From a virus (lineage: Duplodnaviria; Heunggongvirae; Uroviricota; Caudoviricetes), in IMG/VR virus record IMGVR_UViG_2713896775_000007, positions 1-31,955 of that record: a DNA stretch of 31,955 bases. One strand, 5' to 3'. The position numbers and the translations under genes are program-made. A model generated the notes under the pieces. That model was not told where the DNA came from and made no database searches. It worked only from the letters and a program-made list of their open reading frames with translations. Shown piece after piece: positions 1 to 19,303 of this stretch (the stretch's first letter is position 1; each line of letters starts with the position of its first letter).

Positions 1-46
1 GCCACGGGAGCACCTCAAAAACACCATCATACACTAAATCAGTAAG

Positions 47-1387
47 TTGGCACCATTACCCAAGTTTATTGAAGCAGACTTTGGGCTGAATGTGGCAATG
101 CGTATAGCTAATGATGAAAATATTTTGCTCAAGAAAAGTAGATTCTTTTGTGGGGGAAAGAGTCAGGAGGCATCGTCATATTCACAGTTTGTGCAAGGAT
201 CATATTTTCCTGGCGAATCCATCGAACATCTTAAAACAAAAGCCAAAGAAACTGACAAGTGGGGATGTAATAATATAACTTTTTCTGATTCAATACAGCT
301 AAGTTTAGATGGTGCCCCTACTGCATTAGTAGACGTCTTCAATGATATTGATTCTTCGTTGGCAACCAAAGAGAAAATCGAATTTCCTAAATCGGAAAAA
401 ATCACTGACGAGTCAAAGATAGATGAGCTTGATAATTATCTACTTCAATCGATCATTAAAGATGATGTAAATGTTATTATAGATGAGATTCAATCTTTTG
501 GTGCCTCTATTGTAATTAATAATTCTTTGACATTTTTTAAATTGCACACAAAAGTTGAGGGGAGTGGAAAGTATCTTCAATCAGCAGATAAGGTTAATGA
601 CATAAAAATAACAGATGTTAAGCAATTTATAAAAAACAACGACATAAAGGATGTCAATAAAGTTTTTGTTAAGATAACTAATGAAAATAACAGTGGTCAT
701 ACGGCCTCGCTAAAAGAAATATTGAGTATTACTTATAGCGATGGCAGTGAGCACTACTTCCTTAAGAGGGGAGGGTGGAGTCGATTTAACTCTGCCTTTA
801 TGAAGTATTTGTCTACCTCTTTAGCCAGTATAAAATTTGAGGTTAAAGATGCTCTAAAGGAAGACGACTTCAAAGCATGGCAAGCTGAAAAAATAAAACA
901 AATCGAAGAAGGAACTTCTAAAGACAAATTAGAATATAGAGAGTACTATTTTAATGAAAAGATGTCTGTTGAGAAAGGTTATATACTTCTAGATCGCCAG
1001 CTCAAAAAAATACCATCCTTACGTGATGATGGAAAGGACTACAATGTTGAAGTTGCAGATCTTTATAAAAATGGAGAGATTATTGCTGTAAAGATATCAG
1101 ATAAACCGCATGATCTAATTTATAATATTGAGCAGTCAAAAACTACAATTCAAACTATAGTAAGAGGAGTAGTAAAATTTGAAGAGAAAATTACTGATGT
1201 GGTTTTATGGATCTCAACTACTACAAAAGCCAAAAAATTGATTGACATCAATTCTATCCAATTTTTATTAGCGGTTCAAACTTGGAAGGAAGTTGTTGAA
1301 GGATTTAATTTGAAACCAAAGATATATTATTCGCATCACGACAAACCCAAAAAGAAAAAGGAAAAGAAAAAGCCAAAAAACGGTTGA
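47..1387 (+). CDS. Hypothetical protein, 446 aa, lysine-rich C-terminal tail (HHDKPKKKKEKKKPKNG); no recognisable catalytic motif
   Basis: Long uninterrupted ORF bounded by an in-frame stop at 35..37; TTG at 47 or ATG at 98 as start; AT-rich; convergent with the downstream operon. Confidence 0.5.
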   Translation: MAPLPKFIEADFGLNVAMRIANDENILLKKSRFFCGGKSQEASSYSQFVQGSYFPGESIEHLKTKAKETDKWGCNNITFSDSIQLSLDGAPTALVDVFNDIDSSLATKEKIEFPKSEKITDESKIDELDNYLLQSIIKDDVNVIIDEIQSFGASIVINNSLTFFKLHTKVEGSGKYLQSADKVNDIKITDVKQFIKNNDIKDVNKVFVKITNENNSGHTASLKEILSITYSDGSEHYFLKRGGWSRFNSAFMKYLSTSLASIKFEVKDALKEDDFKAWQAEKIKQIEEGTSKDKLEYREYYFNEKMSVEKGYILLDRQLKKIPSLRDDGKDYNVEVADLYKNGEIIAVKISDKPHDLIYNIEQSKTTIQTIVRGVVKFEEKITDVVLWISTTTKAKKLIDINSIQFLLAVQTWKEVVEGFNLKPKIYYSHHDKPKKKKEKKKPKNG

Positions 1388-1495
1388 TTAAAAATATTTA
1401 ATTTCCTTATCGAATAATTTCAGGAGAGAAAAGAACATTCTAATTACCACATTATCAATATTATTTGAGTGTATTGATGGATTTAAAATCTTATG

Positions 1496-1534
1496 TGGTG
1501 GTGTTATGTGAAACTTACACCACCATTGTTTATT
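1496..1534. terminator. Candidate bidirectional intrinsic terminator between convergent genes
   Basis: 9-bp perfect stem TGGTGGTGT (1496..1504) / ACACCACCA (1517..1525), 12-nt loop, followed by TTGTTTATT. Confidence 0.45.
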
Positions 1535-1648
1535 GAACATTTTTAAGAACTTTCAAAATTTACTCTGGATGTTGGTTATAAACTCCATAGCTGATAAGCT
1601 GTGGCACTATTTATGCAATCATAGTGCCCTCATAATCTCTGTACGATT

Positions 1649-3469
1649 TTATTTGAAATGAATTAAACCATAGTTGCCTCTTAATTCATTATCAACAAGA
1701 GTAAAGTTCGTCATTTCTCTGTCAAGCCAATAAGACTCTTCAATATGCTCTAACAGTATTATTTGGAAACCACCATGAGACCGCATTTTCTCAACAAAAG
1801 AATTAATTTCATTTAGGGCTGCATCAAGACTTGCAAAGTCATCAGTTTTTTTACCAGCAGTACTAAAATATGGAGTGCTGGGCTGGTCAATGACTAAGAA
1901 TCGTGGAACCCACGGTACTTTTCTATCTCTTACCAATTCGTGAAGTGCAAGGAAATAAGCTACATGTACATACATATAGTTAGAAGCACTTCCAATATCT
2001 ATCATTTTTTCAACTTGATTTTTATTTATTAAATCAAGTGTTTTTTTTGCCTTGTTGAATATCGGAGTTGCATCCTCAAATCCTTTTAAAGGCATCCGTT
2101 TGAATATTTCCTTTATTTTTCCGTTCAGTAAACTCAATGTATATTCTTTAAAGGCATTATTATCTGTTATCTTGCTTTCTAACTCATTAATTTTAGTAGT
2201 TATCTTTTCTATAGTATCAGTATAATCATATTTAGGGAGAACAACTATCCGTTTAATTTCAGAGCTGAGTTCACCCATGAACCGATAAAGCTCGATTGGC
2301 GTGATTTTTTCATCACTAACAGTTGCAAGTTTTTTACTCAAGGATGATATTTTAAGTTCTAACTCTTTTCTCTTAGCATTTGTTTTTGATATGAGTGAGT
2401 TTTGTCCTTTTTCGGCTATAGCCTTTTTTATCTCTGAGCTTTGGTTCAATAAGGATTTAATGATTGAATAGATTTTTTTTGTATATAATATTTCGCTATA
2501 ATTATCATCTAGATATTTGGCTATTAAAAGAGAGTCTTGGTTATCTTTTAAAAACTTCTTATATTCAGTATTTGTTTCTATATATTCATTAATGTCTGTC
2601 AGTTCTTTTTTTAAGAGGAAAAGTTCTTTTTCAATTTTTGTTCTTTCATTAATTGCTGGGATTTCGTTTATATCCTTGTAATTAACTATCGCTTTCAAAT
2701 TTTCAAGTTTATCACTTACAGTTGGTTCATTCTTGCTGTTTTCACTTATTAAACCAAAATAATACGCCCTGTCGTATAGTGATTCTATTTCACTTTCGAA
2801 ATTGAAATAAGAGTCTTTGCTAGCCGACTGTTTATATTCGATACGAGCAAGATTCCTTTGTAATTCTTCTAACCGCGTTCTCATTATCATAGTTTCGGCG
2901 TTTTCACTGCCAAGAGCCATGTCAAAGGTTCGGTCAATACGCTCTCTTGTCTTTAAATCAGAGATTTTCGAATAAAGATGTTCTGAAGAGGTTAGTGTTG
3001 TTTGATCTATAAAGCAATGCGGGATAAAATATCTATAGGATACTTTTGACCCTTGTTGTATGAATCTACCACCATAAGGGATTTTTAGAGAACTATTAAT
3101 ACCAAACTCATAATTCAGATGTTCTTTTAAAACATCCTTTTTGATATTGTTAATAGGGATTTGTGGAATGCCTCCATTTTTGTCAAAGTAAACTAGATCA
3201 TCTTCTTCAAAGTGTGTCGCTTTTCTACAAATAGTGAAATATTTACCGTTTATACTTAATCTAATCCCATACCAATTTACAAAATTATCGACATTTGTTT
3301 TTGATATACCATCAGATGATGAGGATAAAAGGCAATAATCAATGATAGCCAGTATTGAGGATTTCCCTTTGCCAGAATCACCTGTTATTACATTTACCTT
3401 ATTTTCCTCAAGTTCTAAATTCCTCAAGGTTGAATCAATTTGCCATATTAAAATATTAGTAATCTGCAT
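1649..3469 (-). CDS. SMC/Rad50-like ABC ATPase with coiled-coil insert; LmuB-like ATPase component of a Lamassu/ABC-3C system
   Basis: N-terminal Walker A GDSGKGKSS; long K/E/L-rich central segment (coiled coil); C-terminal Walker B-like RFLVIDQPS and H-loop-like QIILLEH; 1-nt overlap with upstream gene. Confidence 0.7.
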   Translation of the reverse strand: MQITNILIWQIDSTLRNLELEENKVNVITGDSGKGKSSILAIIDYCLLSSSSDGISKTNVDNFVNWYGIRLSINGKYFTICRKATHFEEDDLVYFDKNGGIPQIPINNIKKDVLKEHLNYEFGINSSLKIPYGGRFIQQGSKVSYRYFIPHCFIDQTTLTSSEHLYSKISDLKTRERIDRTFDMALGSENAETMIMRTRLEELQRNLARIEYKQSASKDSYFNFESEIESLYDRAYYFGLISENSKNEPTVSDKLENLKAIVNYKDINEIPAINERTKIEKELFLLKKELTDINEYIETNTEYKKFLKDNQDSLLIAKYLDDNYSEILYTKKIYSIIKSLLNQSSEIKKAIAEKGQNSLISKTNAKRKELELKISSLSKKLATVSDEKITPIELYRFMGELSSEIKRIVVLPKYDYTDTIEKITTKINELESKITDNNAFKEYTLSLLNGKIKEIFKRMPLKGFEDATPIFNKAKKTLDLINKNQVEKMIDIGSASNYMYVHVAYFLALHELVRDRKVPWVPRFLVIDQPSTPYFSTAGKKTDDFASLDAALNEINSFVEKMRSHGGFQIILLEHIEESYWLDREMTNFTLVDNELRGNYGLIHFK

Positions 3470-3915
3470 TATAATCTAACTCCACAAATGTCATATATAT
3501 TGTGTGGTTCTTCTAATAATAAACGTGCAACGTTTATAGATGCTGCCTGTATTTTTACGGCTCTTTTGCCAATAAACGGGATCGCATTATCTAATATTAA
3601 CTTGTTTTTAAATGCTAATTTACCGTGTTCTAATTCAGCTATTCCATTTTCAAGGCACAATGAAACACAATTAACTGAGGATGGAAGGAAATTATAGAAT
3701 CTTTTATTTATGGATACTATTATTTCGGGCTTGGTTAAAAGTAGATCTTGAAAAGATAGTGTATTGGTTCTCTTGTGGGCAAGGTAATCTAAGCTTTTTT
3801 TATGAAATATAATTGGTAAAATTAGCATTGCATTGCTTATTTCAATATTTGATGCTATTGATAACACCTCTTGCAAAGAGAATATACCCAAAAGCTCATT
3901 GTTATATATTTTCAT
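3469..3915 (-). CDS. Small middle component (LmuC-like) of a three-gene Lamassu/ABC-3C operon
   Basis: 148-aa ORF sandwiched between effector and ATPase with 4-nt (ATGA) and 1-nt overlaps, implying translational coupling; size and position fit the middle component. Confidence 0.5.
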   Translation of the reverse strand: MKIYNNELLGIFSLQEVLSIASNIEISNAMLILPIIFHKKSLDYLAHKRTNTLSFQDLLLTKPEIIVSINKRFYNFLPSSVNCVSLCLENGIAELEHGKLAFKNKLILDNAIPFIGKRAVKIQAASINVARLLLEEPHNIYDICGVRL

Positions 3916-5111
3916 TTATAGACTGACTCCCAGTTTTGAAGCCATCCTATTTTGGGCTTATCTGAAAGGAGCAAGAACGTTCCTGTAGTCATAGATTTAG
4001 GTAATTGATTTTTATCCAACACAATATTACAGTTTCCTGTCAATTCAGTATAGACAGAGAAGGCTTTATTAAGATGATCTTCATTTATTTCTGTAAAACG
4101 GCTTCGTATATACGTTGCTGAATGACGTGATTGCCATTCATCAAGCGCTTTTAGATATATTAGTCTTTCTTCTTGAGTTGTTAAATCTCCAGAGCTTTGC
4201 AATTTTTGAATGAAAGCTTCTGTTTTGGCCATTTCATTTATATATTTTACGATTGAATCGCTATTCAAATCCAAATCTTTGAGTTGTTTGTAAGATATCT
4301 TTGATTCAACGTTAGTTGGGTATGCAGATTCAAAATCGTAGTATTGGTCGAAATTATTTATACAATTTCTTGAAATTTGAATAATCCTATCTATTCCCAA
4401 ATTATTTCGAAAATCATCATAACTTATATTTATTTTGGTGTGATTTTTAACCAAATCATATTTATGTTTAAAAAAAGCACCTGAAATATAATTAAAAGCA
4501 TCATCTATTTTATCATCAGGGATTGCTAATGTTTTTAGTAATGTTTTTATTTGGCGGATGATCCCATCTTCGCTATGTTGAAAACTTATACTATTAAATA
4601 AACGTTTAGAAGAATTGCTATCGAGTGAGTTTATGATAGAAATATACTTATAAAGGTCATCTGACTTATTTTTATGATCTTGTTCTATCTTTTCTATTTC
4701 ATCTTTTATTTTTTCAATGTCCTTAGTGTCGTTAGTCAAAAGTTGCACGATACCAGGCTCTAAGGTAAGACCTTTGTTAGTGTAAAAAATAAGGCTAATG
4801 CTTTTGTCGCCTATGGTCTTAATCGCCTCTGACCAATTATATAATGTTTTCCATAAGTCTATGTCTTTATTAGTTATATTAGACTTGTTAATTGAATGTT
4901 TAACTTGAACCAAAGTTTTATGACCCTCGATGCTCTCAAGATGGAGATCGTCATAAACTTCAATCCCAATGTGTTCTTCTGGTTTAAGCTCTAAGGCATG
5001 TTTTAAAGCAACGTAATCTTGATAGGTAAAACCTATTGAATTTTTGTCAGCATTAGTTTTTTCAAAGAAATCCATATGGTAGCCCACTAAGGAAACAAGC
5101 AATGAAAGCAT
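3912..5111 (-). CDS. Effector component (LmuA-like) of a Lamassu/ABC-3C system; N-terminal region compatible with a PD-(D/E)xK-type nuclease
   Basis: 399-aa ORF, first gene of the operon; N-terminal IGIEVYDDLHLE...LVQVKHS resembles a D...(E/Q)xK nuclease signature; start uncertain (ATG at 5111 or 5075). Confidence 0.5.
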   Translation of the reverse strand: MLSLLVSLVGYHMDFFEKTNADKNSIGFTYQDYVALKHALELKPEEHIGIEVYDDLHLESIEGHKTLVQVKHSINKSNITNKDIDLWKTLYNWSEAIKTIGDKSISLIFYTNKGLTLEPGIVQLLTNDTKDIEKIKDEIEKIEQDHKNKSDDLYKYISIINSLDSNSSKRLFNSISFQHSEDGIIRQIKTLLKTLAIPDDKIDDAFNYISGAFFKHKYDLVKNHTKINISYDDFRNNLGIDRIIQISRNCINNFDQYYDFESAYPTNVESKISYKQLKDLDLNSDSIVKYINEMAKTEAFIQKLQSSGDLTTQEERLIYLKALDEWQSRHSATYIRSRFTEINEDHLNKAFSVYTELTGNCNIVLDKNQLPKSMTTGTFLLLSDKPKIGWLQNWESVYK

Positions 5112-5325
5112 AAAAAAACATCAGTATCTTTTTTTTACCATATCAAACACTAAAAACATATGGAAGCATACGTATCAAAGTTTAGTTATATAACCTTATG
5201 TTTTTATACTGGTTTTATGTACATGTGCGCTTTCAATCCGATGAGAATGTTTTAGCTAAGGGGCATTCGTCAGTATATGGGCTTTCCAGGCTCTCCCTAT
5301 CCTTCTTGCTAATCCCCTGTATCAG

Positions 5326-6555
5326 TCAAGCAGCGATAGCTTTAGCTCTTTGAGTTTGAACGTAATCACTCCACCATTGCATCAAACTCTGTCGTTCTAT
5401 CAGATATTCTGCACGATTGTATGCTGCGATAATTTCATCTTTTTTAGAGTGGGCGAGTGCTGCCTCAAGAACTTCAGCTCTGAACTTACCAGACTCCTCT
5501 GCCGCTGTTCTTGCAATCGAACGCATACCGTGAGCTACAAGTTCGCCTCCAAACCCCATTCGGATAATAGCTGCGTTGGCTGTTTGTTCATGCATATGAT
5601 TAAGAGGCGCTTTAATGCTGGGGAAAACCCATTCTCTATGCCCACTTATTGATTTCATTAATTCAAGGATGTGCAAAGCTTCTTTACTCAAAGGAACTTT
5701 GTGAGGCTTTTTCATTTTCATAAAATCAGCAGGAATGTTCCAAATGTTGTTGGTTGTATCAATATCAGACCACCTTGCGCGAACGGCTTCACCCGGACGA
5801 ACCCATGTCAACAATTGCCATTCAATTAGCATACGTGTTTCCAGCCGGATTGACGCATTCGTCAAAGATTCCATAAACCTTGGCAATTCGCTTGGGGGAA
5901 GGGCAGGCATATTTTGCTTTTTTGGTTTACTGAATCTTTGACCAAGGTTGTCAGCCGGATTGAACTCAATAAGTTCTTCAGTGGCTGCCCACCGGAAGAT
6001 TTCATTCAGACGTGAAATGATGCGGCGTAGAGTTTCCAATACGCCTCGTTGCTCAATAGGATCAAGGTGTTGTTTTAAGAGCTTAGGTCGGATCTCATTG
6101 ATAGGGACATTACCCAGGCCAGGAAAGACATTTCTCTCTAAGCTGCGCCAGATGTCTGCTGCATGGTCTTGTGAGATACCTGAGGTCTTTACCTTCTCAT
6201 CCAACCATTTCCTTGCCACGGCTTGGAGAGTGTGTTCAGTAGCATTCTTTAAGGCATTAGCTTTATCGTTGTTATGAACTTGGGGATCAATGCCATTAGC
6301 AAGCAAGGAAAGGTATTCATCTCGTAAGGCTCTGGCTCTTGCCAGTGTAAGGTGAGGATATGTCCCAAGGCTCATTTTGGTTCTTTTTTTACTGACTGGC
6401 ACTGCATACCTGAAATACCAATTCTTCTTTCCTCCTTTCGAGAGGGGAGCGATTCGTAGTATCAAACCATCTCCGTCAAACAAGTTGATTTCTTTGTCGG
6501 CTGGCTTGGTGCTTTTGATTTCAGTGTCAGTGAGCTTCTTAGCGATTTTTGCCAT
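5326..6555 (-). CDS. int: Tyrosine integrase, P4/CP4-57 (IntA) type
   Basis: N-terminal arm-binding-like region (TDTEIKSTKP...LFDGDGLILRI...WYFRY) and C-terminal catalytic region with R...H..R...Y-type residues (HGMRSIART...AYNRAEY); likely start at the internal ATG at 6555 rather than the longest ORF at 6597. Confidence 0.85.
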   Translation of the reverse strand: MAKIAKKLTDTEIKSTKPADKEINLFDGDGLILRIAPLSKGGKKNWYFRYAVPVSKKRTKMSLGTYPHLTLARARALRDEYLSLLANGIDPQVHNNDKANALKNATEHTLQAVARKWLDEKVKTSGISQDHAADIWRSLERNVFPGLGNVPINEIRPKLLKQHLDPIEQRGVLETLRRIISRLNEIFRWAATEELIEFNPADNLGQRFSKPKKQNMPALPPSELPRFMESLTNASIRLETRMLIEWQLLTWVRPGEAVRARWSDIDTTNNIWNIPADFMKMKKPHKVPLSKEALHILELMKSISGHREWVFPSIKAPLNHMHEQTANAAIIRMGFGGELVAHGMRSIARTAAEESGKFRAEVLEAALAHSKKDEIIAAYNRAEYLIERQSLMQWWSDYVQTQRAKAIAA

Positions 6556-6652
6556 TTTGGGACCCTCGGTTTTTGGACCCTTCTTAGTGGGTCCCATTCA
6601 GGGTGCCATAAGTGATAGTTCTCAGCAATTCTCACTGGACGACAATAGACGT

Positions 6653-6684
6653 AAAAAAGCCCGCAGAGCTTGTGCTGTGCGGGC
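6653..6684 (-). terminator. Candidate rho-independent terminator (minus strand) between the tmRNA fragment and the integrase
   Basis: Stem GCCCGCA / TGCGGGC with ~12-nt loop, followed on the minus strand by a T6 run (plus-strand AAAAAA at 6653..6658). Confidence 0.45.
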
Positions 6685-6720
6685 TTAGTAGACTTCATTG
6701 TACTTCAAACAACTAAAAAG

Positions 6721-6765
6721 TGGTGGAGCTGGCGGGAGTTGAACCCGCGTCCGAAATTCCTACAT
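6721..6765 (-). other. ssrA: 3'-terminal fragment of a tmRNA (ssrA)-like gene; probable attachment-site repeat
   Basis: Minus strand reads ATGTAGGAATTTCGGACGCGGGTTCAACTCCCGCCAGCTCCACCA: tRNA-like T-arm and acceptor 3' strand ending CCA, matching the E. coli ssrA 3' end as recalled; adjacent upstream sequence is AT-rich and not tmRNA-like. Confidence 0.75.
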
Positions 6766-6878
6766 ACTATTTTTACTGTAATAAAAACAGTGAATTACGT
6801 TTAAAAACAGTCCTTTAGTGTTATTTGCTGTTTATATGTTTTATGCGTTTTTAATGCTCTGCCGCCACTTTGTCGCCA

Positions 6879-7937
6879 TTAAATGCGCTGGTCATTTGAT
6901 ATAGGTAAAATGCTTGTAAAGAGTTTTTCGTCATATAGTGCGTACTCAGGTATGTAATCACCATTGCTTTTACCTGTTTGGAAGATAGAGGGGTCCTTGT
7001 CGATTAAAACATATAACTCAATGAGAATATTTCTTAGTCCCCAAAGCATTTGCTTTAGTTGTTTTTCATCATTGAATGAGATGCTTATGGCTTCCGTATC
7101 TGGTTTTGGATGTTCAGGAATTATTGAGAAAAGATGTTCTTGGTATTTATAATCAATTCCAAGTAGTCTGCAAAGTTGAATTATGTTTGATTCTATGAGT
7201 TGTAGGCTAACTAATTGGTTGTCATGATTTTTGTTGTTGGACTTAAGCGATTTGTTTATGTTGTTATAATGATTTGTTGTTTTTCGAATAAAATCTTCTT
7301 CGACAGCGGTGCTATAGCCATTATCAATGGAAGATGATTTGAAAATATTTTTATAAAGAGTGTACGGATGAACTACAGATAGTTCAATACTGTCTATATC
7401 ACTAGTTTCTTTATTTAATCTTGATAATTTAAATGTTGGTAGTGTTTGGAATATATCAGCGAAGCTTTTCAGATGTGAGTAATATGAATCAGTGGTGTTT
7501 TTTTCAATAATAAGATTGATTTGCTTTTGTGTTTTTTCTATTTGGTTCTCTGTTTGTGTGGTTCTATGTATATTGTTGACGATTGCTGCAAGAGGTACCG
7601 AAGAAGCTAAAATAAATAATGGCAATTTAGAGATGTCAAGAAAGTGATTAAAACCGTCTGATGTGAAATTTAAATTGTGGCCTTTCCAAGCCCAGAGGCC
7701 ATACAAAACAAACATTTTTAACGGTACGATAATAGATGCTATGAATAATGGTTGTTTTAATAGATTTTTCTCATTTAGTTTAAGCCAATTGAAGCAATAG
7801 AACATAAGTATCAATCCAAGTATATAAGCTACACTAAAGAAGATAAAAACTCTTGGACGATTAGTGTATATCAATGCTAAGGCAATTAAGATGGTAATGA
7901 TTGCGTAGGTAATGATTAATGTGAGTTTTTTTTTCAT
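6879..7937 (-). CDS. Hypothetical membrane protein (about 4 N-terminal TM helices plus ~230-aa soluble C-terminal domain); moron downstream of the prophage integrase
   Basis: ORF begins 4 nt after the integrase stop; hydrophobic segments LTLIITYAIITILIALALIY, VFIFFSVAYILGLILMFYCF, LFIASIIVPLKMFVLYGLWAW, LPLFILASSVPLAAIV; AT-rich; start 7937 or 7979. Confidence 0.5.
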   Translation of the reverse strand: MKKKLTLIITYAIITILIALALIYTNRPRVFIFFSVAYILGLILMFYCFNWLKLNEKNLLKQPLFIASIIVPLKMFVLYGLWAWKGHNLNFTSDGFNHFLDISKLPLFILASSVPLAAIVNNIHRTTQTENQIEKTQKQINLIIEKNTTDSYYSHLKSFADIFQTLPTFKLSRLNKETSDIDSIELSVVHPYTLYKNIFKSSSIDNGYSTAVEEDFIRKTTNHYNNINKSLKSNNKNHDNQLVSLQLIESNIIQLCRLLGIDYKYQEHLFSIIPEHPKPDTEAISISFNDEKQLKQMLWGLRNILIELYVLIDKDPSIFQTGKSNGDYIPEYALYDEKLFTSILPISNDQRI

Positions 7938-7941
7938 TCTA

Positions 7942-8958
7942 TTAAACCAAATTATGTAAAGGATTTTTTGTAACAGCATCTTCTAGATGGTCTGGAGAAA
8001 AGTGTGCGTAAACCATCGTCATTTTTATATCGGCATGGCCCAATATTTCTTTAAGGACAAGAATATTCCCGCCATTCATCATAAAATGACTGGCGAATGT
8101 ATGACGCAGCACGTGGGTGCATTGGCCCTCTGGTAGCTCGATGCCTGCTCGCTTTACTGCTCGTTCAAAGGCTTTTCTGCACGGTGTGAATAGTTTCCCT
8201 CTGTTCTTGGGGAGTTCATCATACAGATTTTGAGATATCGGCACGGTACGATTTTTCTTACCTTTTGTCTTGGTATAGGTGATCCGGTATTTTGATAACT
8301 GATGGCCCTGCAAGTTTTCTGCTTCACTCCATCGCGCACCAGTAGCCAGGCATATTTTTGCAATCATTAGTAGGCTGGTGTTTTGAGATTCGGCGCAGGC
8401 ATTAAGCAGGCGTTTGATTTCGTCCGTGGAAAGAAAAGCCAATTCACCTTCAGCAATTTTGAAGGTTGGAAGCCCTGCCAGCGGGTTTGGTGCGGACCAG
8501 TGCCCTAGTTTTTTCAATGTACCGAACACCGATGACAGGTTACGCTGCTCAAGATTAACTGTGCGAGGTTTAACGGGTGACATGAACGAGCCGTCTTCAT
8601 TTTGGACCTCCCCCTTTAATCTGGCTTCCCGATATTTTGTGAAATCACCTGCTGTCAGCTCAGAGGCGATGGGATCGCCTAGACCATTACAGATAATTCT
8701 AAGTTTCGCCATCAGGCGTTTGGGGTCTGCGAGTGTTTGACCATATAGGGAATACCACTGCTCAATCACTTCTGATAATCGCCGCCGATCTTCCTTCTCA
8801 CCAAGCCATGGCTTTTTGTTTACTTCGTCCATGGTGAAGCTTTCAAATGCAATGGCTTCGCCTTTGGTAGCAAATTGCTTACGCACGCGCTTACCATTGC
8901 GTCCATTGGGATAGCACTCACACAACCATTTTCCGTTCGGCTGTTTTCTGATGGTCAT
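7942..8958 (-). CDS. int: P2-type tyrosine integrase
   Basis: 338 aa; conserved blocks GRNGKRVRKQF, TGARWSEA, HVLRHTFASHFMMNGGNILVLKEILGH...MVYAHF. Confidence 0.9.
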   Translation of the reverse strand: MTIRKQPNGKWLCECYPNGRNGKRVRKQFATKGEAIAFESFTMDEVNKKPWLGEKEDRRRLSEVIEQWYSLYGQTLADPKRLMAKLRIICNGLGDPIASELTAGDFTKYREARLKGEVQNEDGSFMSPVKPRTVNLEQRNLSSVFGTLKKLGHWSAPNPLAGLPTFKIAEGELAFLSTDEIKRLLNACAESQNTSLLMIAKICLATGARWSEAENLQGHQLSKYRITYTKTKGKKNRTVPISQNLYDELPKNRGKLFTPCRKAFERAVKRAGIELPEGQCTHVLRHTFASHFMMNGGNILVLKEILGHADIKMTMVYAHFSPDHLEDAVTKNPLHNLV

Positions 8959-8961: not shown

Positions 8962-9600
8962 TTAGAGGTTCTTGATTACTTTGACTGCACGTCCTACGAC
9001 TTCCACATCATCTACAGAACATTCAAATGAAGTGTCATCTTGGTTAACTACTATTTTGTTTCCGGGTATGCGCGCAATTTTGACGATGCTTTTAACTCCG
9101 TCCATATCGACTAACCAGAAGCCATTACTGACTTGTTTAACGGACGTATCCACTACAAAGCTATTATTAGCTGTTTTAACAAATAAAGCGTTGGATGAGT
9201 CACCATCGAGCAGGCTGCTATCAAGAAGAATTTCATCACTTGCCTGCAGTTCGCCGTTCTTCAGTTCAACACGTTTGATGCTAGGAGCAACGATCTTAGA
9301 AAGTGGTCTTACAGTGACGGGAGGTTCATTTTTGAGATTTGTTTCTTCGTTCTCACACGCATACATATCTCCTTGACCAGTAGCCAGCCATAGAAGGGAA
9401 ACTCCTGTTTCAAGGGCACATTGAATTACCCATTCGGCAGGAAAGCTATCCCTTAAGTATCTGTTAGCCATAGTGCTTTTGGATACCTCCAGATGTTCGC
9501 AGAGCTGCTGTCGTGAGCTGAAGTTGTAAGCCTTAATAAGCCTGTTAATTGCATCGCGCCCACCACTATCATTTCCCGCCTTGATCAAACTCATAATCAA
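8962..9600 (-). CDS. cI: CI-type immunity repressor (phage 186 CI family)
   Basis: N-terminal HTH block RYLRDSFPAEWVIQCALETGVSLLWLATGQG typical of 186-type CI; divergent from the early lytic promoter. Confidence 0.8.
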   Translation of the reverse strand: MIMSLIKAGNDSGGRDAINRLIKAYNFSSRQQLCEHLEVSKSTMANRYLRDSFPAEWVIQCALETGVSLLWLATGQGDMYACENEETNLKNEPPVTVRPLSKIVAPSIKRVELKNGELQASDEILLDSSLLDGDSSNALFVKTANNSFVVDTSVKQVSNGFWLVDMDGVKSIVKIARIPGNKIVVNQDDTSFECSVDDVEVVGRAVKVIKNL

Positions 9601-11536: not shown

Positions 11537-11835
11537 CAAGGGCAGTGCGTATCCATCAATTAAAAATTGCACCTAAGTATTTCAACGCTGTGGTTGCAGG
11601 TCAAAAGACGGCTGAACTTCGTAAAGACGATCGTGGCTATAAAGTTGGTGATGTTCTTTCTCTTTGCGAATGGAAGCATGGCGTATTTACGGGTAGGGAA
11701 TGGGCCGCTGTTATCTCTCATGTGCTTCCGGTTAATGACGTCATGGCAGTTTCAGAACAATGGGTGATGCTATCAATTCGCCCATTAACCCCATTAGAAG
11801 CTTTAGGATATGTTATTGCAGGAGGTGCTGTATGA
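11533..11835 (+). CDS. DUF3850/ASCH-like (PUA-fold) protein
   Basis: [37 protein letters not shown] pattern; SD GGAGG before ATG 11533; the longer 11473 start was rejected. Confidence 0.6.
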
Positions 11836-12689
11836 GTACCATCCTGAAATGGGCGGGTAATAAAACTGCCATTATGTCCGAACTGAAAAAACATCTTCCT
11901 GCTGGCCCGCGACTGGTTGAACCTTTCGCGGGTTCCTGTGCTGTGATGATGGAGACGGATTACCCCAGCTATCTTGTTGCGGATATTAATCCTGATTTAA
12001 TCAACCTCTATAAAAAGGTTGCTGCTGATTGCGAGGCGTTTATATCTCGTGCCAGAGCTTTATTTGAGGAAGCAAACAGGGAGTTGGCTTATTACAACAT
12101 AAGGCAGGAGTTTAATTACTCCACTGAAATTACTGATTTCATGAAAGCGGTATATTTCCTGTATCTCAATCGTCATGGTTACCGTGGGTTATGTCGTTAT
12201 AACAAGAGCGGGCATTTCAACATTCCATACGGTAATTATAAAAATCCGTATTTCCCTGAAAAAGAAATTCGCGCATTTGCAGAGAAAGCCCAGCGAGCAA
12301 CGTTTATCTGCGCCAGCTTTGATGAAACGCTGGCGATGCTGCAGGTGGGGGATGTGGTGTATTGCGATCCGCCTTATGACGGTACGTTTTCCGGCTATCA
12401 CACTAACGGCTTCACTGAAGATGACCAGTATCACCTGGCATCTGTTCTTGAATATCGATCATCAGAAGGTCATCCAGTCATTGTTTCTAACAGTGACACA
12501 TCCCTGATCCGTTCGCTGTATCGAAACTTCACTCACCACTACATCAAGGTAAAACGCAGCATCGGCGTGTCGGCTGGCGAGAGTAAATCTGCAACAGAAA
12601 TCATTGCTGTGTCCGGGGCGCGCTGCTGGGTGGGATTTGATCCTTCGCGTGGCGTGGATAGTTCTGCCATGTACGGAGTGCGTGCATGA
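11832..12689 (+). CDS. dam: Dam-family DNA N6-adenine methyltransferase
   Basis: ILKWAGNK N-terminus, FAGSCAV (AdoMet site) and catalytic DPPY motif; SD GGAGG before ATG 11832. Confidence 0.9.
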
Positions 12690-15100
12690 GCCATGATGAT
12701 ATGAACAACTGCAGCGGCTTTAACGAGGTCGCCGCAGCATTCTCATGGAACAGCCCGAAAAAGGCCATTAACCCTTATCTGGACCCGGCGGAAGTTGCGC
12801 CGGTTTCTGCGCTTTCAAACCTGATCACTCTGTACGCTGTCGATAACGAGCAGGAACAGCTGCGCCGCGAGGCACTGAGTGATCAGGTCTGGGAGCGTTA
12901 TTTCTTTAATGAATCCCGTGATCCTGTCCAACGCGAAATGGAGCAGGATAAACTCATTAGCCGGGCAAAGCTGGCGCATGAGCAGCAGCGTTTTAATCCG
13001 GATATGGTCATTCTGGCGGACGTCAACGCCCAGCCTTCCCATATCAGCAAGCCGCTGATGCAACGTATTGAATACTTCAGCAGCCTGGGCAGGCCAAAGG
13101 CTTATTCCCGCTATTTGCGTGAGACGATTAAGCCATGTCTGGAACGACTGGAGCATGTACGCGAGAGTCAGCTATCCACTTCTTTTCGCTTTATGGCAAG
13201 CCATGAAGGGCTGGACGGCCTGCTGATCCTGCCTGAAATGAGTCAGGATCAGGTGAAACGCCTGTCTACTCTTGTCGCTGCGCATATGAGCATGTGTCTT
13301 GATGCCGCTTGTGGTGATTTGTACACCACCGAAGATGTTAAGCCAGAAGAAATCCGCAAGACATGGGAAAAGGTGGCAGCAGAAACCCTGCGACTGGATG
13401 TCATACCGCCTGCGTTTGAGCATCTCCGCCGGAAAAGAAACCGCCGTAAACCCGTGCCCTATGAACTTATTCCGGGTTCGCTGGCGCGTATGTTGTGCGC
13501 CGACTGGTGGTACCGGAAATTATGGAAGATGCGTAGCGAATGGCGGGAAGAGCAGTTGCGTGCTATTTGCCTGGTCAGCAAAAAAGCATCTCCCTATGTC
13601 AGCTATGAAGCCGTGATGCATAAACGTGAGCAGCGCCGTAAGTCGCTGGAGTTTTTCCGTTCTCATGAACTGGTGAACGAAGACGGCGACACGCTGGATA
13701 TGGAAGACGTGGTAAACGCCAGCAGCAGCAACCCTGCGCATCGCCGCAATGAGATGATGGCCTGTGTTAAAGGTCTGGAGCTTATCGCGGAAATGCGCGG
13801 TGACTGCGCCGTTTTCTACACCATCACCTGTCCGTCACGTTTCCATTCCACGCTAAATAACGGCAGGCCAAACCCGACCTGGACCAACGCGACAGTAAGA
13901 CAAAGCAGCGATTATCTGGTCGGCATGTTTGCTGCATTTCGTAAGGCTATGCACAAAGCCGGGTTGCGCTGGTATGGCGTGCGGGTGGCTGAGCCGCATC
14001 ATGATGGCACAGTTCACTGGCACCTGTTGTGTTTCATGCGCAAAAAAGACCGCCGTGCCATCACTGCATTACTGCGTAAGTTTGCCATCCGTGAAGACCG
14101 CGAGGAGCTGGGCAATAACACTGGGCCGCGCTTTAAGTCTGAGTTGATTAACCCGCGCAAAGGAACGCCGACAAGCTACATCGCGAAATATATCAGTAAG
14201 AACATTGACGGTCGTGGTCTGGCTGGCGAGATCAGCAAGGAAACGGGTAAATCTCTGCGTGATAACGCTGAATACGTGAATGCCTGGGCGTCTTTGCATC
14301 GTGTTCAGCAATTCCGCTTCTTTGGCATTCCGGGGCGTCAGGCTTACCGTGAACTGCGATTGTTGGCTGGTCAGGCGGCAAGGCAACAGGGGGACAAAAA
14401 TGCAGGTGCGCCGGTACTGGATAACCCGCGTCTTGATGCCATTCTGGCTGCTGCTGATGCTGGTTGTTTTGCCACCTACATCATGAAGCAGGGCGGCGTA
14501 CTGGTTCCCCGTAAATATCACCTCATCAGAACCGCTTATGAAATCAACGAAGAGCCGACCGCCTATGGCGATCACGGCATTCGTATTTATGGCATCTGGT
14601 CACCCATTGCAGAGGGCAAGATCTGCACTCATGCAGTGAAGTGGAAAATGGTTCGTAAAGCCGTTGACGTTCAGGAGGCGGCAGCCGACCAGGGCGCTTG
14701 CGCCCCTTGGACTCGTGGCAATAACTGTCCCCTTGCTGAAAATTTGTACCAACAAGGGAAAGACAAATCAGCTGATGGAGATACCAGAACGGATATCACC
14801 CGTATGGATGACAAGGAGTTGCACGATTACCTGCACAGTATGAGCAAAAAAGAGCGCCGGGAACTGGCAGCAAGGTTACGCCTGGTGAAACCGAAACGGC
14901 GTAAAGACTACAAACAGCGAATTACAGATCATCAGCGACAGCAGCTCGTGTATGAACTGAAGTCCAGGGGATTTGATGGCAGCGAGAAAGAGGTCGATTT
15001 ACTCCTTCGCGGCGGCAGTATTCCGTCAGGAGCAGGCCTGCGTATCTTCTATCGGAACCAGCGTTTGCAGGAAGATGATAAGTGGCGGGATCTGTATTAA
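12686..15100 (+). CDS. A: Replication initiation endonuclease gpA (rolling-circle, HUH type)
   Basis: 804 aa; HUH-like [11 protein letters not shown] and tyrosine motif YIAKYISKN. Confidence 0.9.
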
Positions 15101-15252: not shown

Positions 15253-15441
15253 ATGCAGGCCTATTTTTTGGAGTCTTTGAAGCTCCAGCGCATTGATTTT
15301 TTTCTTAAGCTTGTAGCGGCTAGTGAGTGTAGTGATGAAGAGAAGGGGCTGGCTTTGCAGTGGGTTTCTGAACTAACAGATGAACTCATGGCAAAAATCA
15401 GAACCCACGAATACAACCGCTCAATGGATGTCATCAGCTGA
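15253..15441 (+). CDS. Small SOS-controlled protein (candidate Tum-like antirepressor; function not established)
   Basis: SD AGGAGG at 15243..15248; directly downstream of the LexA box; first gene of a two-gene unit with the DinI-like gene. Confidence 0.45.
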   Translation: MQAYFLESLKLQRIDFFLKLVAASECSDEEKGLALQWVSELTDELMAKIRTHEYNRSMDVIS

Positions 15442-15451
15442 GGTGACTTTT

Positions 15452-15685
15452 ATGCGCATTGAAATAATGATCGATAAAGAGCAGAAGATTAGCCAGTCTA
15501 CCCTGGACGCTCTGGAGTCCGAGCTTTACCGCAACCTGCGCCCCCTGTATCCCAAAACGGTAATTCGTATCCGTAAAGGTAGCTCTAACGGTGTGGAACT
15601 GACCGGACTGAAACTGGACGAAGAAAAAAAACAAGTGATGAAAATTATGCAGAAGGTGTGGGAAGACGACAGCTGGCTGCATTAA
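15452..15685 (+). CDS. DinI-like protein
   Basis: MRIEIMIDK...LESELYRNLRPLYP...WEDDSWL resembles DinI; SD GAGGTGA before ATG 15452. Confidence 0.8.
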   Translation: MRIEIMIDKEQKISQSTLDALESELYRNLRPLYPKTVIRIRKGSSNGVELTGLKLDEEKKQVMKIMQKVWEDDSWLH

Positions 15686-15999
15686 GAAACGTTGCCCCCA
15701 GGAGGATTCATTCTGAAGGGGGCTAGTTTGGGCAACGAGTGAAATAAGGTGTAAGGTCATTTTGATAAATGATCGTCTGCTTTGTGCAAGATGCAAACGT
15801 TTCTTCTGCTAACTTTCGTTAATTAACGAATGGCAGACTAATTCGCAACGGATAATCTGAATTTTGTAAGATTATGGGCATTTCTATAAAATTTACTAAT
15901 AATAACCTTACAATGTACACTACCGATTGAATTTTCCATAGTTGGCCTTTGGCTCTACTTACCATCTATGTTTATGTATTTTATCAAAATGGACTAAAA

Positions 16000-17892
16000 A
16001 TGAACAATACGTACATCAAAGACTATATAGAATATTACCTTAGCCTTACAACTGAACCTCAATACGCCATTATGCTTAAAGGTGCTTGGGGATCAGGTAA
16101 AACTTGGTTCATTGAACAAGTTCTTGAAGAATATAAGCAGAAGAATTCAGAGTTTAAATTTCTAAAAGTGAGTTTGTATGGCGTCAACTCTATTAAGCAG
16201 ATTGAAGATGAGTTCTATCGTCAACTTCATCCTGTCCTATCAAACAAAGCCCTTATCTTTGGTGCAAATGTACTAAAAAATACGCTTAAGGCTACTTTCA
16301 AGATCGATCTCAATGGCGATAATAAATCTGACGTTGATGTCAATACCAATGTTCCCACCATTAATCTTAACGATTTTAGTAGAAAACCAGATGGTTTTGT
16401 GCTGGTCTTTGATGATATCGAGAGAGCTGGTATAGATTTACCAATTTTATTTGGATATATAAACCACTTTGTAGAAGTAAACGGATACAAAGCGATCTTG
16501 GTTGCCAATGAAGAAGAAATAATCAATAGAGAAAAGCGAATAAATAATGATGATGAGAAATCTAGCAGCGAATACATGAGAACAAAAGAAAAGCTTGTTG
16601 GTAAAACATTTGAAGTAACGTCAGATTTACATAGTGCTTGTAATGTTTTTTTGGGCGTAATTAGCAGTTTACACGTTGCTAATATATTTAAAGAAGATAT
16701 GCAGGCCATAGAAGACATCTATGTGTCGGCGAAATATAATAATCTAAGACACTTGAGGCAGTTCTTTCTTGATGTACAACGCATCATTTCCCTTTTTGGA
16801 AATAAATATGTCAGCAACGACGATTTTATGAGGGTATTTTTCCAGCAGTTGTTAATTTTCTCGATAGAGTACCGGGGAGGGAACCTTAACTACGAGGAAT
16901 TCGATTCAATCAGCAATGTTAATTATGGTATGTTTTTAGGTAAAGAGCGTACCAAAACTAAGTATGACATGATCGTCGAGAAATATTCATCTCCTGTATT
17001 AACCGAGAAGTTACTGGATGGTGCGTACTGGAGGGAGCTAATCTGTGATGGAAAGGTAACGAGTGAACTTCTCGCTCAGTTGGATATTACGCGATTTTTT
17101 AGAAGCACCGATGCCCAAGCATGGGAGTATTTGTGGAACTATCGAGAACTTAATGAAACTATGCTTAATGAGCAGTACGCCATTGCCAAGGATAATCTAT
17201 TTTCAGGTAAGATCACTTCCTTAGGTGAACTCCTGATGACCGCGAGTATTTTGCTGGACATGGCGAAAGAAGGTCTAACAACAGATGATGTTCATGATCT
17301 CATAAATGAGACAAAACAGAATATAAATAATTATTATAATAGACTTAGAGCTGAAGATATACATAAGGAATATGCGCAAACGCATTATAACGAATTAAGG
17401 GCATGGCGTGGCTTTGGTTTTCTTGACAGGGATAGCGATGAATTCAAACTCATTATTGAGCATATTGAGATAGCGAAGAAGAAACGGTTTGATGAATCAA
17501 TTCCGGAATTTGCGTTGCAGTTCAGCGATGAGTTGCAAAGGGGAAACTTATCGTTTGTATCTGAATTGAGTCATTCTAATAATAGGCAGTTAAATCTTCA
17601 TAACGTGCCTTTTTTACACTTGGTTCCTCCTGAAGTTTTCATTGAAAGCTATAGGAAACTTGACCCAGTCCTCATGAGGAAACTGGCATTTAGCTTGCGG
17701 AATCGTTATTCTGATGGGGATGCTAGAACCAGACTGACCGAAGAATACAACTGGTTGATTAACCTAAAAGAGATAGCTGTAGATTTCACTCAAAACGCAG
17801 CCAATAACTCCTTTCAGGTTTTTCACGTAAAGTTTTTTATTGACTATGTATTAACTAGCGCAATCAAATTCTTTACTGAGGGAACTGATTAA
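16000..17892 (+). CDS. KAP-family-like P-loop NTPase (cargo; candidate anti-phage gene)
   Basis: Walker A GAWGSGKT and Walker B VLVFDDIER (hhhhDD-x-ER, KAP-like) about 115 aa apart; large helical C-terminal region; AT-rich; likely start ATG 16000. Confidence 0.75.
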   Translation: MNNTYIKDYIEYYLSLTTEPQYAIMLKGAWGSGKTWFIEQVLEEYKQKNSEFKFLKVSLYGVNSIKQIEDEFYRQLHPVLSNKALIFGANVLKNTLKATFKIDLNGDNKSDVDVNTNVPTINLNDFSRKPDGFVLVFDDIERAGIDLPILFGYINHFVEVNGYKAILVANEEEIINREKRINNDDEKSSSEYMRTKEKLVGKTFEVTSDLHSACNVFLGVISSLHVANIFKEDMQAIEDIYVSAKYNNLRHLRQFFLDVQRIISLFGNKYVSNDDFMRVFFQQLLIFSIEYRGGNLNYEEFDSISNVNYGMFLGKERTKTKYDMIVEKYSSPVLTEKLLDGAYWRELICDGKVTSELLAQLDITRFFRSTDAQAWEYLWNYRELNETMLNEQYAIAKDNLFSGKITSLGELLMTASILLDMAKEGLTTDDVHDLINETKQNINNYYNRLRAEDIHKEYAQTHYNELRAWRGFGFLDRDSDEFKLIIEHIEIAKKKRFDESIPEFALQFSDELQRGNLSFVSELSHSNNRQLNLHNVPFLHLVPPEVFIESYRKLDPVLMRKLAFSLRNRYSDGDARTRLTEEYNWLINLKEIAVDFTQNAANNSFQVFHVKFFIDYVLTSAIKFFTEGTD

Positions 17893-17957
17893 CTTTTTGT
17901 TGATTAACATAGGCAATATTATTAGAAGTACTAGGGATAGTCAGTAAAATTATTAAC

Positions 17958-17989
17958 GTCCGCTTCGCTCAAAGCGGACTTTGTGCTTT
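17958..17989 (+). terminator. Rho-independent terminator after the KAP NTPase gene
   Basis: GTCCGCTT (17958..17965), loop CGCTCA, AAGCGGAC (17972..17979), then TTTGTGCTTT. Confidence 0.6.
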
Positions 17990-18177
17990 ATAAAAACGAG
18001 AGTTTTGTTTTTCAAGCGGTCATTCGGTTACGGGATTTCACTTCCCCCGTAAGTGCATGACTATGCCGCATGAGATCGCATGATCGTTTGCGGATCGTTT
18101 TTGCTAAGGCACGCCAGAACTGGTGGGATTTTGCGTAGATCATGCGCCTGCATGAAAACCGCTACATAAAGCGGGCA

Positions 18178-18197
18178 GGCGTGGCGGGGATACGAGC
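18178..18197. other. Candidate cos site (P2/186-type cohesive-end sequence) inside a GC-rich non-coding block (17990..18274)
   Basis: GGCGTGGCGGGGATACGAGC followed by GCGCGCTG; the first 13 nt match the 186/P2 cohesive-end consensus GGCG(A/T)GGCGGGGA as recalled, and the GCGCGCTG just downstream also matches P2. Confidence 0.45.
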
Positions 18198-18304
18198 GCG
18201 CGCTGTATGCCTGAAGTGGCTAAAATAGTATCTGTCATAGGTACAACTTAGTGTAGTATCATCCATATAATCCATTGAAATATAATCGACTCTCATTAGA
18301 GGTG

Positions 18305-19303
18305 ATGATGAACGGAATCTGGTACGAAAACACTCATACACGCATTCCTAATTTTGAAACAACAGTACATCAAAAGCACAAATTCGGTTACGCTTATGAA
18401 ACAACAAGTCATTTTGTGCATCTGTATGGGCGTGACGTGGGATTTAATGTAATATCAGTTGGGTTAACTGTTATTGAGCAACGAAGTGGAACTCTCAATG
18501 ATTGGGTTCGGAGAGTATTTGGGGCTCAGAACATATCTCCTTTAGATAATGAAATTGGACATGTAACTAGGGGAGTGTGGCGGCCATCCTTATATTATGT
18601 CAATGATACAGAAACAGCATTAGGTATCGATGAGTTTGAAAAAAGAGCAACAGAGCAAGCTCTAAGAGTTTTGATAGAAAAACTCGATGATATTTTTCTA
18701 TATGTAGAACCAAGTGCCCATGGTTTGATTTCTTACAGTCATAAATGTAGAGAGCTATTAATTCTTGCTTGTACTGAGGTTGAAAATCAATGGGTGTCAA
18801 TCATTGGTAATTCGAATTTATCTCGTTCAAATGGTCGATACTCCACAAATGATTATGTGAAATTATTAGATAAGTGTTATTTGTCTGAATATAAAATTCA
18901 ATATTTGAATTATGACGGATTAAGGCATTTCAAACCTTTTGATGGGTGGAATGCAAGTACCCCTACAACATCTTTGTCATGGTATAATGCATATAATAAA
19001 ACTAAACATGATAGATCAGGAGCATTCCACTTTTCCACTTTAGAAAATGTAATGGATGCAGTTGCTGCTTGTGTTGTAATGTACTGTGTAAAATATGGCC
19101 CGTTTAGCTTATTGGAAGCCAATACGTCTCTATCAACGATCGTTAATCAAAACTTTTCAATTTCATTAGATAATAGCAATCCAGCAAGTTATTACATTCC
19201 TGAAATTGAACTTCCACCGGATACAAGAACGGATTTATTAATTTATGATTGTTATCGAGAAAACCATAATAAAGCATGGGTCACTGATCCCCTAGTGCTC
19301 TAA
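18305..19303 (+). CDS. Hypothetical protein, about 333 aa (cargo); possible HEPN-like Rx4H motif (speculative)
   Basis: AT-rich ORF after the cos-like block; C-terminal KTKHDRSGAFHFSTLENV contains R-x4-H; start ATG 18305 or 18308 (ORF track begins at TTG 18275). Confidence 0.55.
   Translation: MMNGIWYENTHTRIPNFETTVHQKHKFGYAYETTSHFVHLYGRDVGFNVISVGLTVIEQRSGTLNDWVRRVFGAQNISPLDNEIGHVTRGVWRPSLYYVNDTETALGIDEFEKRATEQALRVLIEKLDDIFLYVEPSAHGLISYSHKCRELLILACTEVENQWVSIIGNSNLSRSNGRYSTNDYVKLLDKCYLSEYKIQYLNYDGLRHFKPFDGWNASTPTTSLSWYNAYNKTKHDRSGAFHFSTLENVMDAVAACVVMYCVKYGPFSLLEANTSLSTIVNQNFSISLDNSNPASYYIPEIELPPDTRTDLLIYDCYRENHNKAWVTDPLVL

Follow-up and report, generated by a model that had tools for sequence, protein, structure and literature searches.

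A probable short, hook-less Lamassu operon on an ssrA-site island beside a P2-type prophage

Lamassu systems protect bacteria against phages and plasmids by means of an effector that cuts DNA; they have been studied in depth, and a RefSeq census counted 3,829 of them (PMC12663957). We analyzed a 31,955-nucleotide stretch of a Caudoviricetes record (IMG/VR record IMGVR_UViG_2713896775_000007; hereafter the window), in which a preliminary description made from the sequence had proposed a three-gene Lamassu/ABC-3C operon with the order LmuA-LmuC-LmuB. Our results agree with that proposal: PADLOC models matched the three products at E-values of 2.7e-43, 8.8e-7, and 6.6e-84, respectively. We conclude that the genes very probably form a Lamassu operon of the short type II (three-gene, ABC-3C) class and the Cap4-nuclease/CTD7/MC3 sub-family; the operon is intact, encodes no zinc hook, and occupies the integrase-proximal cargo position of an island at the ssrA site. 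The operon and its leader are laid out as follows.

5076..5325, minus strand: intergenic stretch between the integrase stop and lmuA, presumed from its position to hold the operon promoter and leader
3912..5075, minus strand: lmuA, 387 amino acids from Met13 (the longest open reading frame extends to 5111 and encodes 399 amino acids); effector with an N-terminal Cap4-like PD-(D/E)xK nuclease and a C-terminal CTD7 oligomerisation/sequestration domain
3469..3915, minus strand: lmuC, 148 amino acids; small middle component of the MC3 family
1649..3469, minus strand: lmuB, 606 amino acids; SMC/Rad50-like ABC ATPase, the putative sensor

The open reading frame listing contained all three frames as they had been described, at 3912-5111, 3469-3915, and 1649-3469 on the minus strand, with 399, 148, and 606 amino acids. 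Gene overlaps of 4 and 1 nucleotides had also been reported, and both were read directly in the sequence: the lmuA/lmuC junction is TATAAATGA, with a 4-nucleotide overlap at ATGA, and the lmuC/lmuB junction is TTATAATGC, with a 1-nucleotide overlap at TAATG. Purine-rich GGGAG and GTGGAG elements lie approximately 10-13 nucleotides 5' of the lmuC and lmuB starts, respectively. The overlaps alone suggest tight translational coupling within the operon. At the 31% guanine-plus-cytosine (G+C) content of the operon DNA, about 7.8% of random codons would be stops, and the chance probabilities of open frames of 387, 148, and 606 codons are ~2e-14, ~6e-6, and ~4e-22; the three frames are therefore not due to chance. 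All of them are intact, and their products are 98.6-100% identical to Escherichia coli RefSeq proteins; LmuA is 100% identical to E. coli WP_223271244.1, and the three proteins differ from those of another E. coli strain by 0, 2, and 4 amino acids. RefSeq gives the identical E. coli LmuA protein from the second methionine (Met13; 387 amino acids; position 5075), where most LmuA homologues begin and where the alignments to solved LmuA proteins also begin. Met13 is thus the likely start of LmuA rather than the first codon of the 399-amino-acid frame, a small correction to the preliminary description. The G+C content of lmuA, lmuC, and lmuB is 30-31.5%, that of the adjoining integrase gene is 44.5%, and that of the structural region of the neighboring prophage is 57%.

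The ATPase is the most clearly recognizable component. LmuB matched the PADLOC LmuB model PDLC03859 over residues 1-591, and its C-terminus matched Pfam PF12532 (DUF3732/LmuB_C) at 7.5e-38 (130 bits; cut-off 25). The best solved relatives were all Lamassu LmuB proteins, namely those of Salmonella (9hqu_A, 2.5e-27, residues 2-540) and Vibrio cholerae (9ny5_D, 7.5e-19), which bears out the earlier assignment of the third gene to the SMC-like ABC ATPases. The protein carries a Walker A motif, GDSGKGKS, at residues 30-37 (including K36), a signature-like GSAS at 493, and a Walker B motif, FLVIDQ, at 524-529; the same Walker A and Walker B motifs were present in the LmuB homologues of two loci described below (L004 and L005). 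Short Lamassu systems have an LmuB of about 600 amino acids on average and a deviant Walker B of the form hhhhD[Q/S/T/E] (PMC12663957). Both the FLVIDQ motif and the length of 606 amino acids fit this "short" class.

LmuB contains no CxxC motif, its only cysteines being at positions 46, 81, and 152, and none was found in the LmuB proteins of L004 and L005. In the alignment to Salmonella LmuB, the window protein has a gap exactly at the position of CPMC. The CxxC zinc hook varies among short Lamassu systems (0, 1, or 2 copies), and the hook-less class includes V. cholerae (PMC12663957). Given the missing CxxC and the gap at CPMC, dimerisation at the LmuB apex must differ from that in Salmonella, as it does in V. 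cholerae. A probable coiled coil between the two halves of the ATPase is supported by alignment to solved LmuB: Walker A and Walker B lie 487 residues apart, and the aligned segment (residues 2-540) runs through the coiled-coil arms of the solved protein. A single-sequence AlphaFold model was mostly helical over ~172-485, but this model is unreliable, with a predicted local distance difference test (pLDDT) score of 41.7, too poor for a fold search; a crude test of heptad periodicity and composition gave no clear signal.

LmuC matched Pfam MC3 ("ABC-3C middle component 3") at 1.8e-12 (47.5 bits; cut-off 23.2) and the PADLOC LmuC model, as given above. A four-sequence LmuC profile searched against Protein Data Bank (PDB) sequences returned Salmonella LmuC (9hqu_D) as the top hit at E 0.99, which is not significant, so the assignment of this protein to LmuC rests on the Pfam and PADLOC matches.

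The effector was assigned from matches in sequence, matches in fold, and conserved residues. The PADLOC LmuA model PDLC03848 covered the protein nearly over its full length, and phmmer found the solved LmuA proteins of V. cholerae (9nxx, 1.7e-8) and Salmonella (9hqu_C, 3.1e-8). The CTD7 match spans profile positions 3-123 of 126, and several LmuA homologues have a precomputed PF20283 match. An AlphaFold model of LmuA was built with 26 homologues (mean pLDDT 86). In a Foldseek search of this model against the PDB, the first 16 matches were solved LmuA chains from V. cholerae and Salmonella enterica (best E 2.3e-16), with alignments of ~385-400 columns, that is, full length. The chain comprising only the LmuA C-terminal domain (CTD), 9hr5_D, was matched with a template-modelling (TM) score of 0.76 and a root-mean-square deviation of 2.9, and nuclease domains of Cap4 proteins, which belong to the cyclic-oligonucleotide-based anti-phage signalling system (CBASS), ranked after the solved LmuA chains (E ~3e-5).

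The N-terminal motif singled out in the preliminary description, IGIEVYDDLHLE...LVQVKHS, is present in the translation, and its reading as a PD-(D/E)xK-type nuclease is backed by the Cap4-like fold and by residues E39, D43, Q57, and K59, which are invariant in the 26 homologues of the family alignment. K59 (K71 in the 399-amino-acid numbering) aligns with V. cholerae LmuA K57 and Salmonella K68, the catalytic lysines needed for defence in those systems (PMC12663957; 10.1101/2025.03.14.643221). The view that the effector could not be clearly placed in a named subtype did not hold: the PADLOC, phmmer, and Foldseek matches and the invariant residues identify a protein of the type with a Cap4-like N-terminal nuclease domain and CTD7. 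On the evidence of its sequence and model, LmuA falls into one sub-family with V. cholerae DdmA and Salmonella LmuA.

The trio is conserved as a unit. Clustered at 90% identity, the LmuA homologues amount to 45 clusters, a small clade with members from Xenorhabdus, Photorhabdus, Pectobacterium, Brenneria, Providencia, Serratia, Orbus, Pseudomonas, Halopseudomonas, Photobacterium, and metagenomes. The homologous loci compared outside E. coli were the following.

L008/L009, Xenorhabdus: LmuA identity 93%
L004, Halopseudomonas: identity 36% for LmuA, 32% for LmuC, and 43% for LmuB
L005-L007, metagenomes, among type I restriction-modification genes (hsdM/hsdS upstream): identity about 25-26% for LmuA, 32% for LmuC, and 33% for LmuB

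In all of these loci, and in two from E. coli (L001 and L003), the gene order is LmuA, MC3 protein, LmuB_C protein, with overlapping or abutting frames. Gene order is thus shared by loci whose LmuA proteins are 93%, 36%, and 25% identical to that of the window, and LmuA, LmuC, and LmuB diverge in parallel across the loci compared. The most distant locus type (L005, 1627-11048) comprises HsdM, HsdS, LmuA-C-B, and a Fic/helix-turn-helix protein, followed by a large open reading frame that is cut off. Among 5,426 complete E. coli genomes, 24 carry the operon at 96.6-99.4% DNA identity, always on the chromosome and in a single copy. No match to phage records was obtained with megablast, and blastn against plasmids returned only a 91-nucleotide match in the P-loop; in the collections searched, the operon is cargo of chromosomal islands.

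Three studies published in 2025 solved the V. cholerae and Salmonella systems of the Cap4-CTD7-MC3 sub-family, and both resemble the window operon. The DdmABC system of V. cholerae El Tor (equivalent to LmuA/LmuC/LmuB and also called "Lamassu Vc-Cap4"; PDB 9nxx, 9ny1, 9ny5, 9nyg, 9uxh-9uxl), which eliminates plasmids, has the same order of effector, middle component, and SMC-like ATPase. It shares a Cap4-like nuclease with CTD7, an MC3-family LmuC, a short LmuB (~600-650 amino acids) with a Walker A, a deviant Walker B, and no zinc hook, as well as a location on a horizontally acquired island. It differs in host and island, the window operon lying at an Enterobacterales ssrA site and being known here from sequence, and in the extent of divergence: LmuA shares ~15-20% identity, and only the N-terminal half of LmuB aligns well. 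The LmuACB system of S. enterica serovar Tennessee ("SalEnt"; PDB 9hqu, 9hqx, 9hr5) belongs to the same sub-family and provides the best solved match to LmuB, with the shared motifs VNVI(T/S)G..GKS, IGS.SN, and FL(V/I)(I/L)DQPS; its LmuA matches the fold of the window LmuA model at E 2.7e-16. Unlike the window protein, SalEnt LmuB carries CPMC, a CxxC zinc hook on which defence depends, and the sequence similarity between the two LmuC proteins is not significant.

Type II Lamassu and ABC-3C are two names for the same systems, and we found no difference in kind from the ABC-3C families in Pfam (MC1-MC8, CTD1-CTD12), with MC3 above and CTD7 near its cut-off; the pairing of MC3 and CTD7 with a short LmuB is the one described for the DdmABC sub-family. 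The CBASS Cap4 nucleases (PDB 6vm5, 6vm6, 6wam, 6wan) share the N-terminal nuclease fold but are activated by a cyclic oligonucleotide at a SAVED domain, whereas LmuA has CTD7 and is probably controlled by sequestration in, and release from, an LmuB-LmuC complex. SbcCD/Rad50-Mre11, the proposed ancestor of Lamassu, likewise has an ABC ATPase head split by a coiled coil and recognizes DNA ends as a complex; Lamassu differs in having no Mre11/SbcD partner, a much shorter coiled coil, an LmuB_C C-terminus, and a releasable, promiscuous effector.

In the solved systems, two LmuB proteins with folded coiled coils and one LmuC hold one LmuA monomer via its CTD. LmuB and LmuC bind DNA ends in vitro, and LmuB gathers at the lambda replication origin in vivo. 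Freed LmuA forms a cyclic tetramer through its CTDs, in which two Cap4-like domains make one active site that cuts DNA non-specifically, and this ends in abortive infection or in the loss of plasmids. For the window operon, we observed the gene content and order, the motifs, the folds, and the conservation; its stoichiometry, trigger, tetramerisation, and phenotype are predicted from these homologues. By analogy, two LmuB ATPases and one LmuC would hold an LmuA monomer by its C-terminal domain and keep the nuclease inactive. LmuB and LmuC would sense an invading phage or plasmid by its DNA ends or abnormal replication structures, and LmuA would then be released, possibly with help from a slow turnover of ATP at the deviant Walker B. 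The freed LmuA would tetramerise through its C-terminal domains, pairing two Cap4-like nuclease domains into an active site, and DNA would be cut without sequence specificity, killing or arresting the infected cell (abortive infection). At the level of sequence and model, every feature that this mechanism needs is present, namely the ATP-binding lysine, the deviant Walker B, MC3, CTD7, and the catalytic D...QxK.

Several observations weigh against an unqualified assignment of the window operon to a working system of the solved kind. In hidden Markov model searches of the three proteins, MC3 and DUF3732/LmuB_C scored above the curated cut-offs, but in LmuA both CTD7 (23.1 bits; cut-off 27.6) and Cap4_nuclease (21.2 bits; cut-off 26.2) fell just below theirs. 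Identity to the solved LmuA proteins is just ~15-20% by structural alignment, the similarity of LmuC to solved LmuC is not significant (E ~1), and LmuB scores nearer to Salmonella LmuB, which depends on its hook for defence, yet has no CxxC. A consensus promoter scan of 1300-5400 found no site upstream of lmuA, and promoter-like sites were fewer than in shuffled sequences. We found no experiment on this orthologue in the literature; it may be among the "Ec" and "Kp" systems tested by Li et al. (10.1101/2025.03.14.643221). The published studies also disagree on whether ATP stimulates cleavage in vitro, and the role of ATP hydrolysis is disputed.

These points bear mainly on two alternatives, each of which accepts the operon as Lamassu. 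It could share the architecture and effector of DdmABC and SalEnt but belong to a divergent hook-less clade with a different trigger or stoichiometry, and might act mainly on plasmids or on the neighboring P2-type prophage or satellites. The low identity of LmuA and the non-significant LmuC match are in keeping with this idea, as is the missing hook in an LmuB that lies nearer to the hook-dependent Salmonella protein; LmuC and the LmuA CTD have been proposed to diversify under phage pressure, and plasmid elimination is known for DdmABC. However, nothing in the sequence points to another sensor. The solved systems have the same MC3, CTD7, and LmuB_C families, and in that of V. cholerae LmuB is likewise hook-less; we therefore regard a different trigger as rather unlikely. 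An extended form of the idea seems slightly less likely still. There, the Enterobacterales clade, hook-less, with an LmuA at 15-20% identity to the solved proteins and a barely recognizable LmuC, would be a variant with another mode of dimerisation at the LmuB apex and with an LmuC/CTD pair that recognizes another DNA structure or escapes an anti-Lamassu factor of phages; its fixed place beside the ssrA-site integrase, abutting a P2-type prophage with its own defence cargo, could then reflect rivalry among mobile elements instead of plain protection of the host. Alternatively, the operon could be Lamassu by descent but silent or non-functional in its host, as an unexpressed island passenger or one that is being lost. 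No recognizable sigma-70 promoter was found upstream of lmuA, and the operon is rare (24 of the 5,426 E. coli genomes). Furthermore, the adjoining DUF6119 gene is truncated by the presumed insertion sequence (IS) end at window 1-60, and in other strains IS elements lie near the operon, so parts of the island are decaying. Nevertheless, the three frames are intact with every catalytic motif kept, the differences from another E. coli strain are only those few given above, and Xenorhabdus keeps both the module, at 93%, and its integrase. In DNA of 30% G+C, a promoter could escape a simple consensus scan, and terminator-like sites in 1300-5400 were likewise not enriched over shuffles, so the scan is neutral on expression. 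We consider a silent relic improbable.

Two further readings place the proteins outside Lamassu, and both are very remote. The 606-amino-acid ATPase could be a housekeeping repair protein of the SMC, RecN, or SbcC type, brought together with the other two genes by accident; a weak, sub-threshold Pfam AAA_23 match at its N-terminus (19.7 bits) and the presumed descent of Lamassu from SbcCD would fit. However, NCBIfam gave no SMC, RecN, or SbcC match and only a chance-level P-loop match, the C-terminus is LmuB_C at 130 bits, and the solved relatives are LmuB proteins only. A true recN lies separately, in the conserved chromosome beside ssrA in E. coli and Xenorhabdus; the trio is conserved across distant taxa; and the operon, at 31% G+C beside an island integrase, stands apart from the rest of the window at 55-58%. 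The housekeeping reading was rejected on the missing family-model match, the LmuB_C C-terminus, and the conserved trio. The effector, for its part, could be a CBASS Cap4 nuclease in a locus for cyclic-oligonucleotide signalling, as the sub-threshold Cap4_nuclease match and the Foldseek match to the Cap4 nuclease domain might suggest. Against this, no SAVED or CARF domain was detected, the C-terminal half of LmuA matches CTD7 and the LmuA CTD, the solved LmuA proteins match approximately 11 orders of magnitude better than Cap4, and no CD-NTase match was found among the flanking open reading frames scanned. This candidate was rejected because CTD7 takes the place of SAVED and a CD-NTase is missing among those frames.

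The location of the operon is defined by two features next to it.

5326..6597, minus strand: P4-type (arm-binding) tyrosine integrase with Pfam Arm-DNA-bind_3, Phage_int_M, and Phage_integrase, all above cut-off
6721..6765, minus strand: 45-nucleotide 3' remnant of ssrA, the transfer-messenger RNA (tmRNA) gene; attachment-site repeat at the integrase-side end of the island

The integrase architecture upholds the preliminary description, which had placed a P4-type integrase beside the operon. The 45-nucleotide match to the 3' end of ssrA is exact, and a pattern search found it in 0 of 100 shuffled sequences; ARAGORN detected no tRNA or full tmRNA in the window, and an Rfam scan of it returned no match. 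Past the remnant, where a P2-like prophage starts, the window no longer aligns to the E. coli int-ssrA junction. An ssrA-remnant attachment repeat between the island and a P2-type prophage implies tandem insertion at ssrA, and the most economical reading is that the site is occupied in tandem, by the island and then the prophage; an intact copy of ssrA would lie beyond the window. In both E. coli loci inspected (EC21Z-048 and SWHEFF_68), the order is smpB - ssrA - integrase - lmuA - lmuC - lmuB, followed after lmuB by variable cargo: DUF6119, a His-Xaa-Ser system, SIR2, relaxase, and IS elements. Xenorhabdus griffiniae has smpB, integrase, and Lamassu, then DUF6650 and SIR2; ssrA is not in the gene table of this locus (L008). 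As regards a P4 satellite, the integrase is P4-type, and the related E. coli islands show relaxase/mobilisation, His-Xaa-Ser, SIR2, and DUF6119 genes; none of the P4 satellite genes psu, delta, sid, and alpha primase is annotated in the 8-14 kb of these islands that were inspected.

The cargo of the site varies. Most E. coli carriers and Xenorhabdus have a small DUF6650 or hypothetical gene and then a SIR2-family gene after lmuB, not DUF6119 (5107-8052 in the SWHEFF_68 locus, L003; 11518-13678 in L008), and these two genes may add a second pair of defence genes to the island. E. coli MFDS1016424 (L002, 4994-8950) has the same arrangement of ssrA-site integrase and P2 prophage with other cargo in the integrase-proximal slot, namely a 572-amino-acid "ATP-binding protein", a 582-amino-acid "response regulator receiver domain" protein, and a small hypothetical protein. 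As this strain holds different genes there, the integrase-proximal slot is a variable cargo position and appears to exchange its genes. In the window, the frame at 47-1387 (plus strand) shows homology to the intact 544-amino-acid DUF6119/TIGR04141 gene of E. coli EC21Z-048 only from ~61 onwards, and an in-frame stop precedes the open reading frame; the DUF6119 gene beside the operon is therefore 5'-truncated, with ~100 codons missing. The sequence at window ~1-60 is repeated thousands of times in E. coli genomes (median 10 per genome), and, to judge by the IS1 terminal repeat, it is a putative IS1-type terminal end. The island is thus cut off in the window at ~60 by a presumed IS1-type end.

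The locus is an ordinary example of an already catalogued system and holds little new biology: PADLOC models of 2023 recognize all three proteins, and the structure and activation mechanism were solved in 2025. Its proteins are present in RefSeq under generic names, and the assignment allows these to be refined. LmuA (Cap4-like nuclease/CTD7) is a suitable name for the "hypothetical protein" WP_223271244.1, and LmuB for the "DUF3732 protein"; the lmuC product is listed as "three component ABC system middle component". The window LmuB, which has no hook although its Salmonella relative depends on one, is a possible comparison point for LmuB dimerisation. The window also illustrates the build-up of defence cargo at ssrA, where a Lamassu island stands in tandem with a P2-type prophage bearing candidate defence genes.

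This prophage (P2-type, Peduovirus-like) occupies window ~6766-31955 and, across ~78% of its length, matches P2-like phage records from Klebsiella and E. coli at 94-96% identity. Its recognizable genes and the cargo found with them are listed below.

6879-7979, minus strand: 366-amino-acid open reading frame, 31% G+C, between the ssrA remnant and the P2 integrase and overlapping the stop region of the integrase gene
7942-8958: prophage integrase
8962-9600: CI
11760-12689: Dam-type methylase
12686-15100: gpA
15380-15685: DinI
15949-17892: KAP-family P-loop NTPase, 647 amino acids, matching the PADLOC candidate system PDC-S49 at 3.6e-159
18275-19303: 342-amino-acid protein with a phrog_19461 match, function unassigned
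19360-19986: HNH_2 endonuclease, 208 amino acids, on the opposite strand to the other cargo
20391-21422, minus strand: portal
21419-23185, minus strand: terminase

The slot between gpA and the portal gene holds cargo of low G+C content (34-40%) at window 15900-20350; this slot is a known P2 hotspot for defence genes. The 366-amino-acid frame had no Pfam or PADLOC match and matched only phrog_17460 (function unassigned; 7.5e-49). The N-terminal half of its product appears hydrophobic and membrane-like by eye, and E. coli MFDS1016424 has a different hypothetical gene in the same slot; the frame may be a prophage moron.

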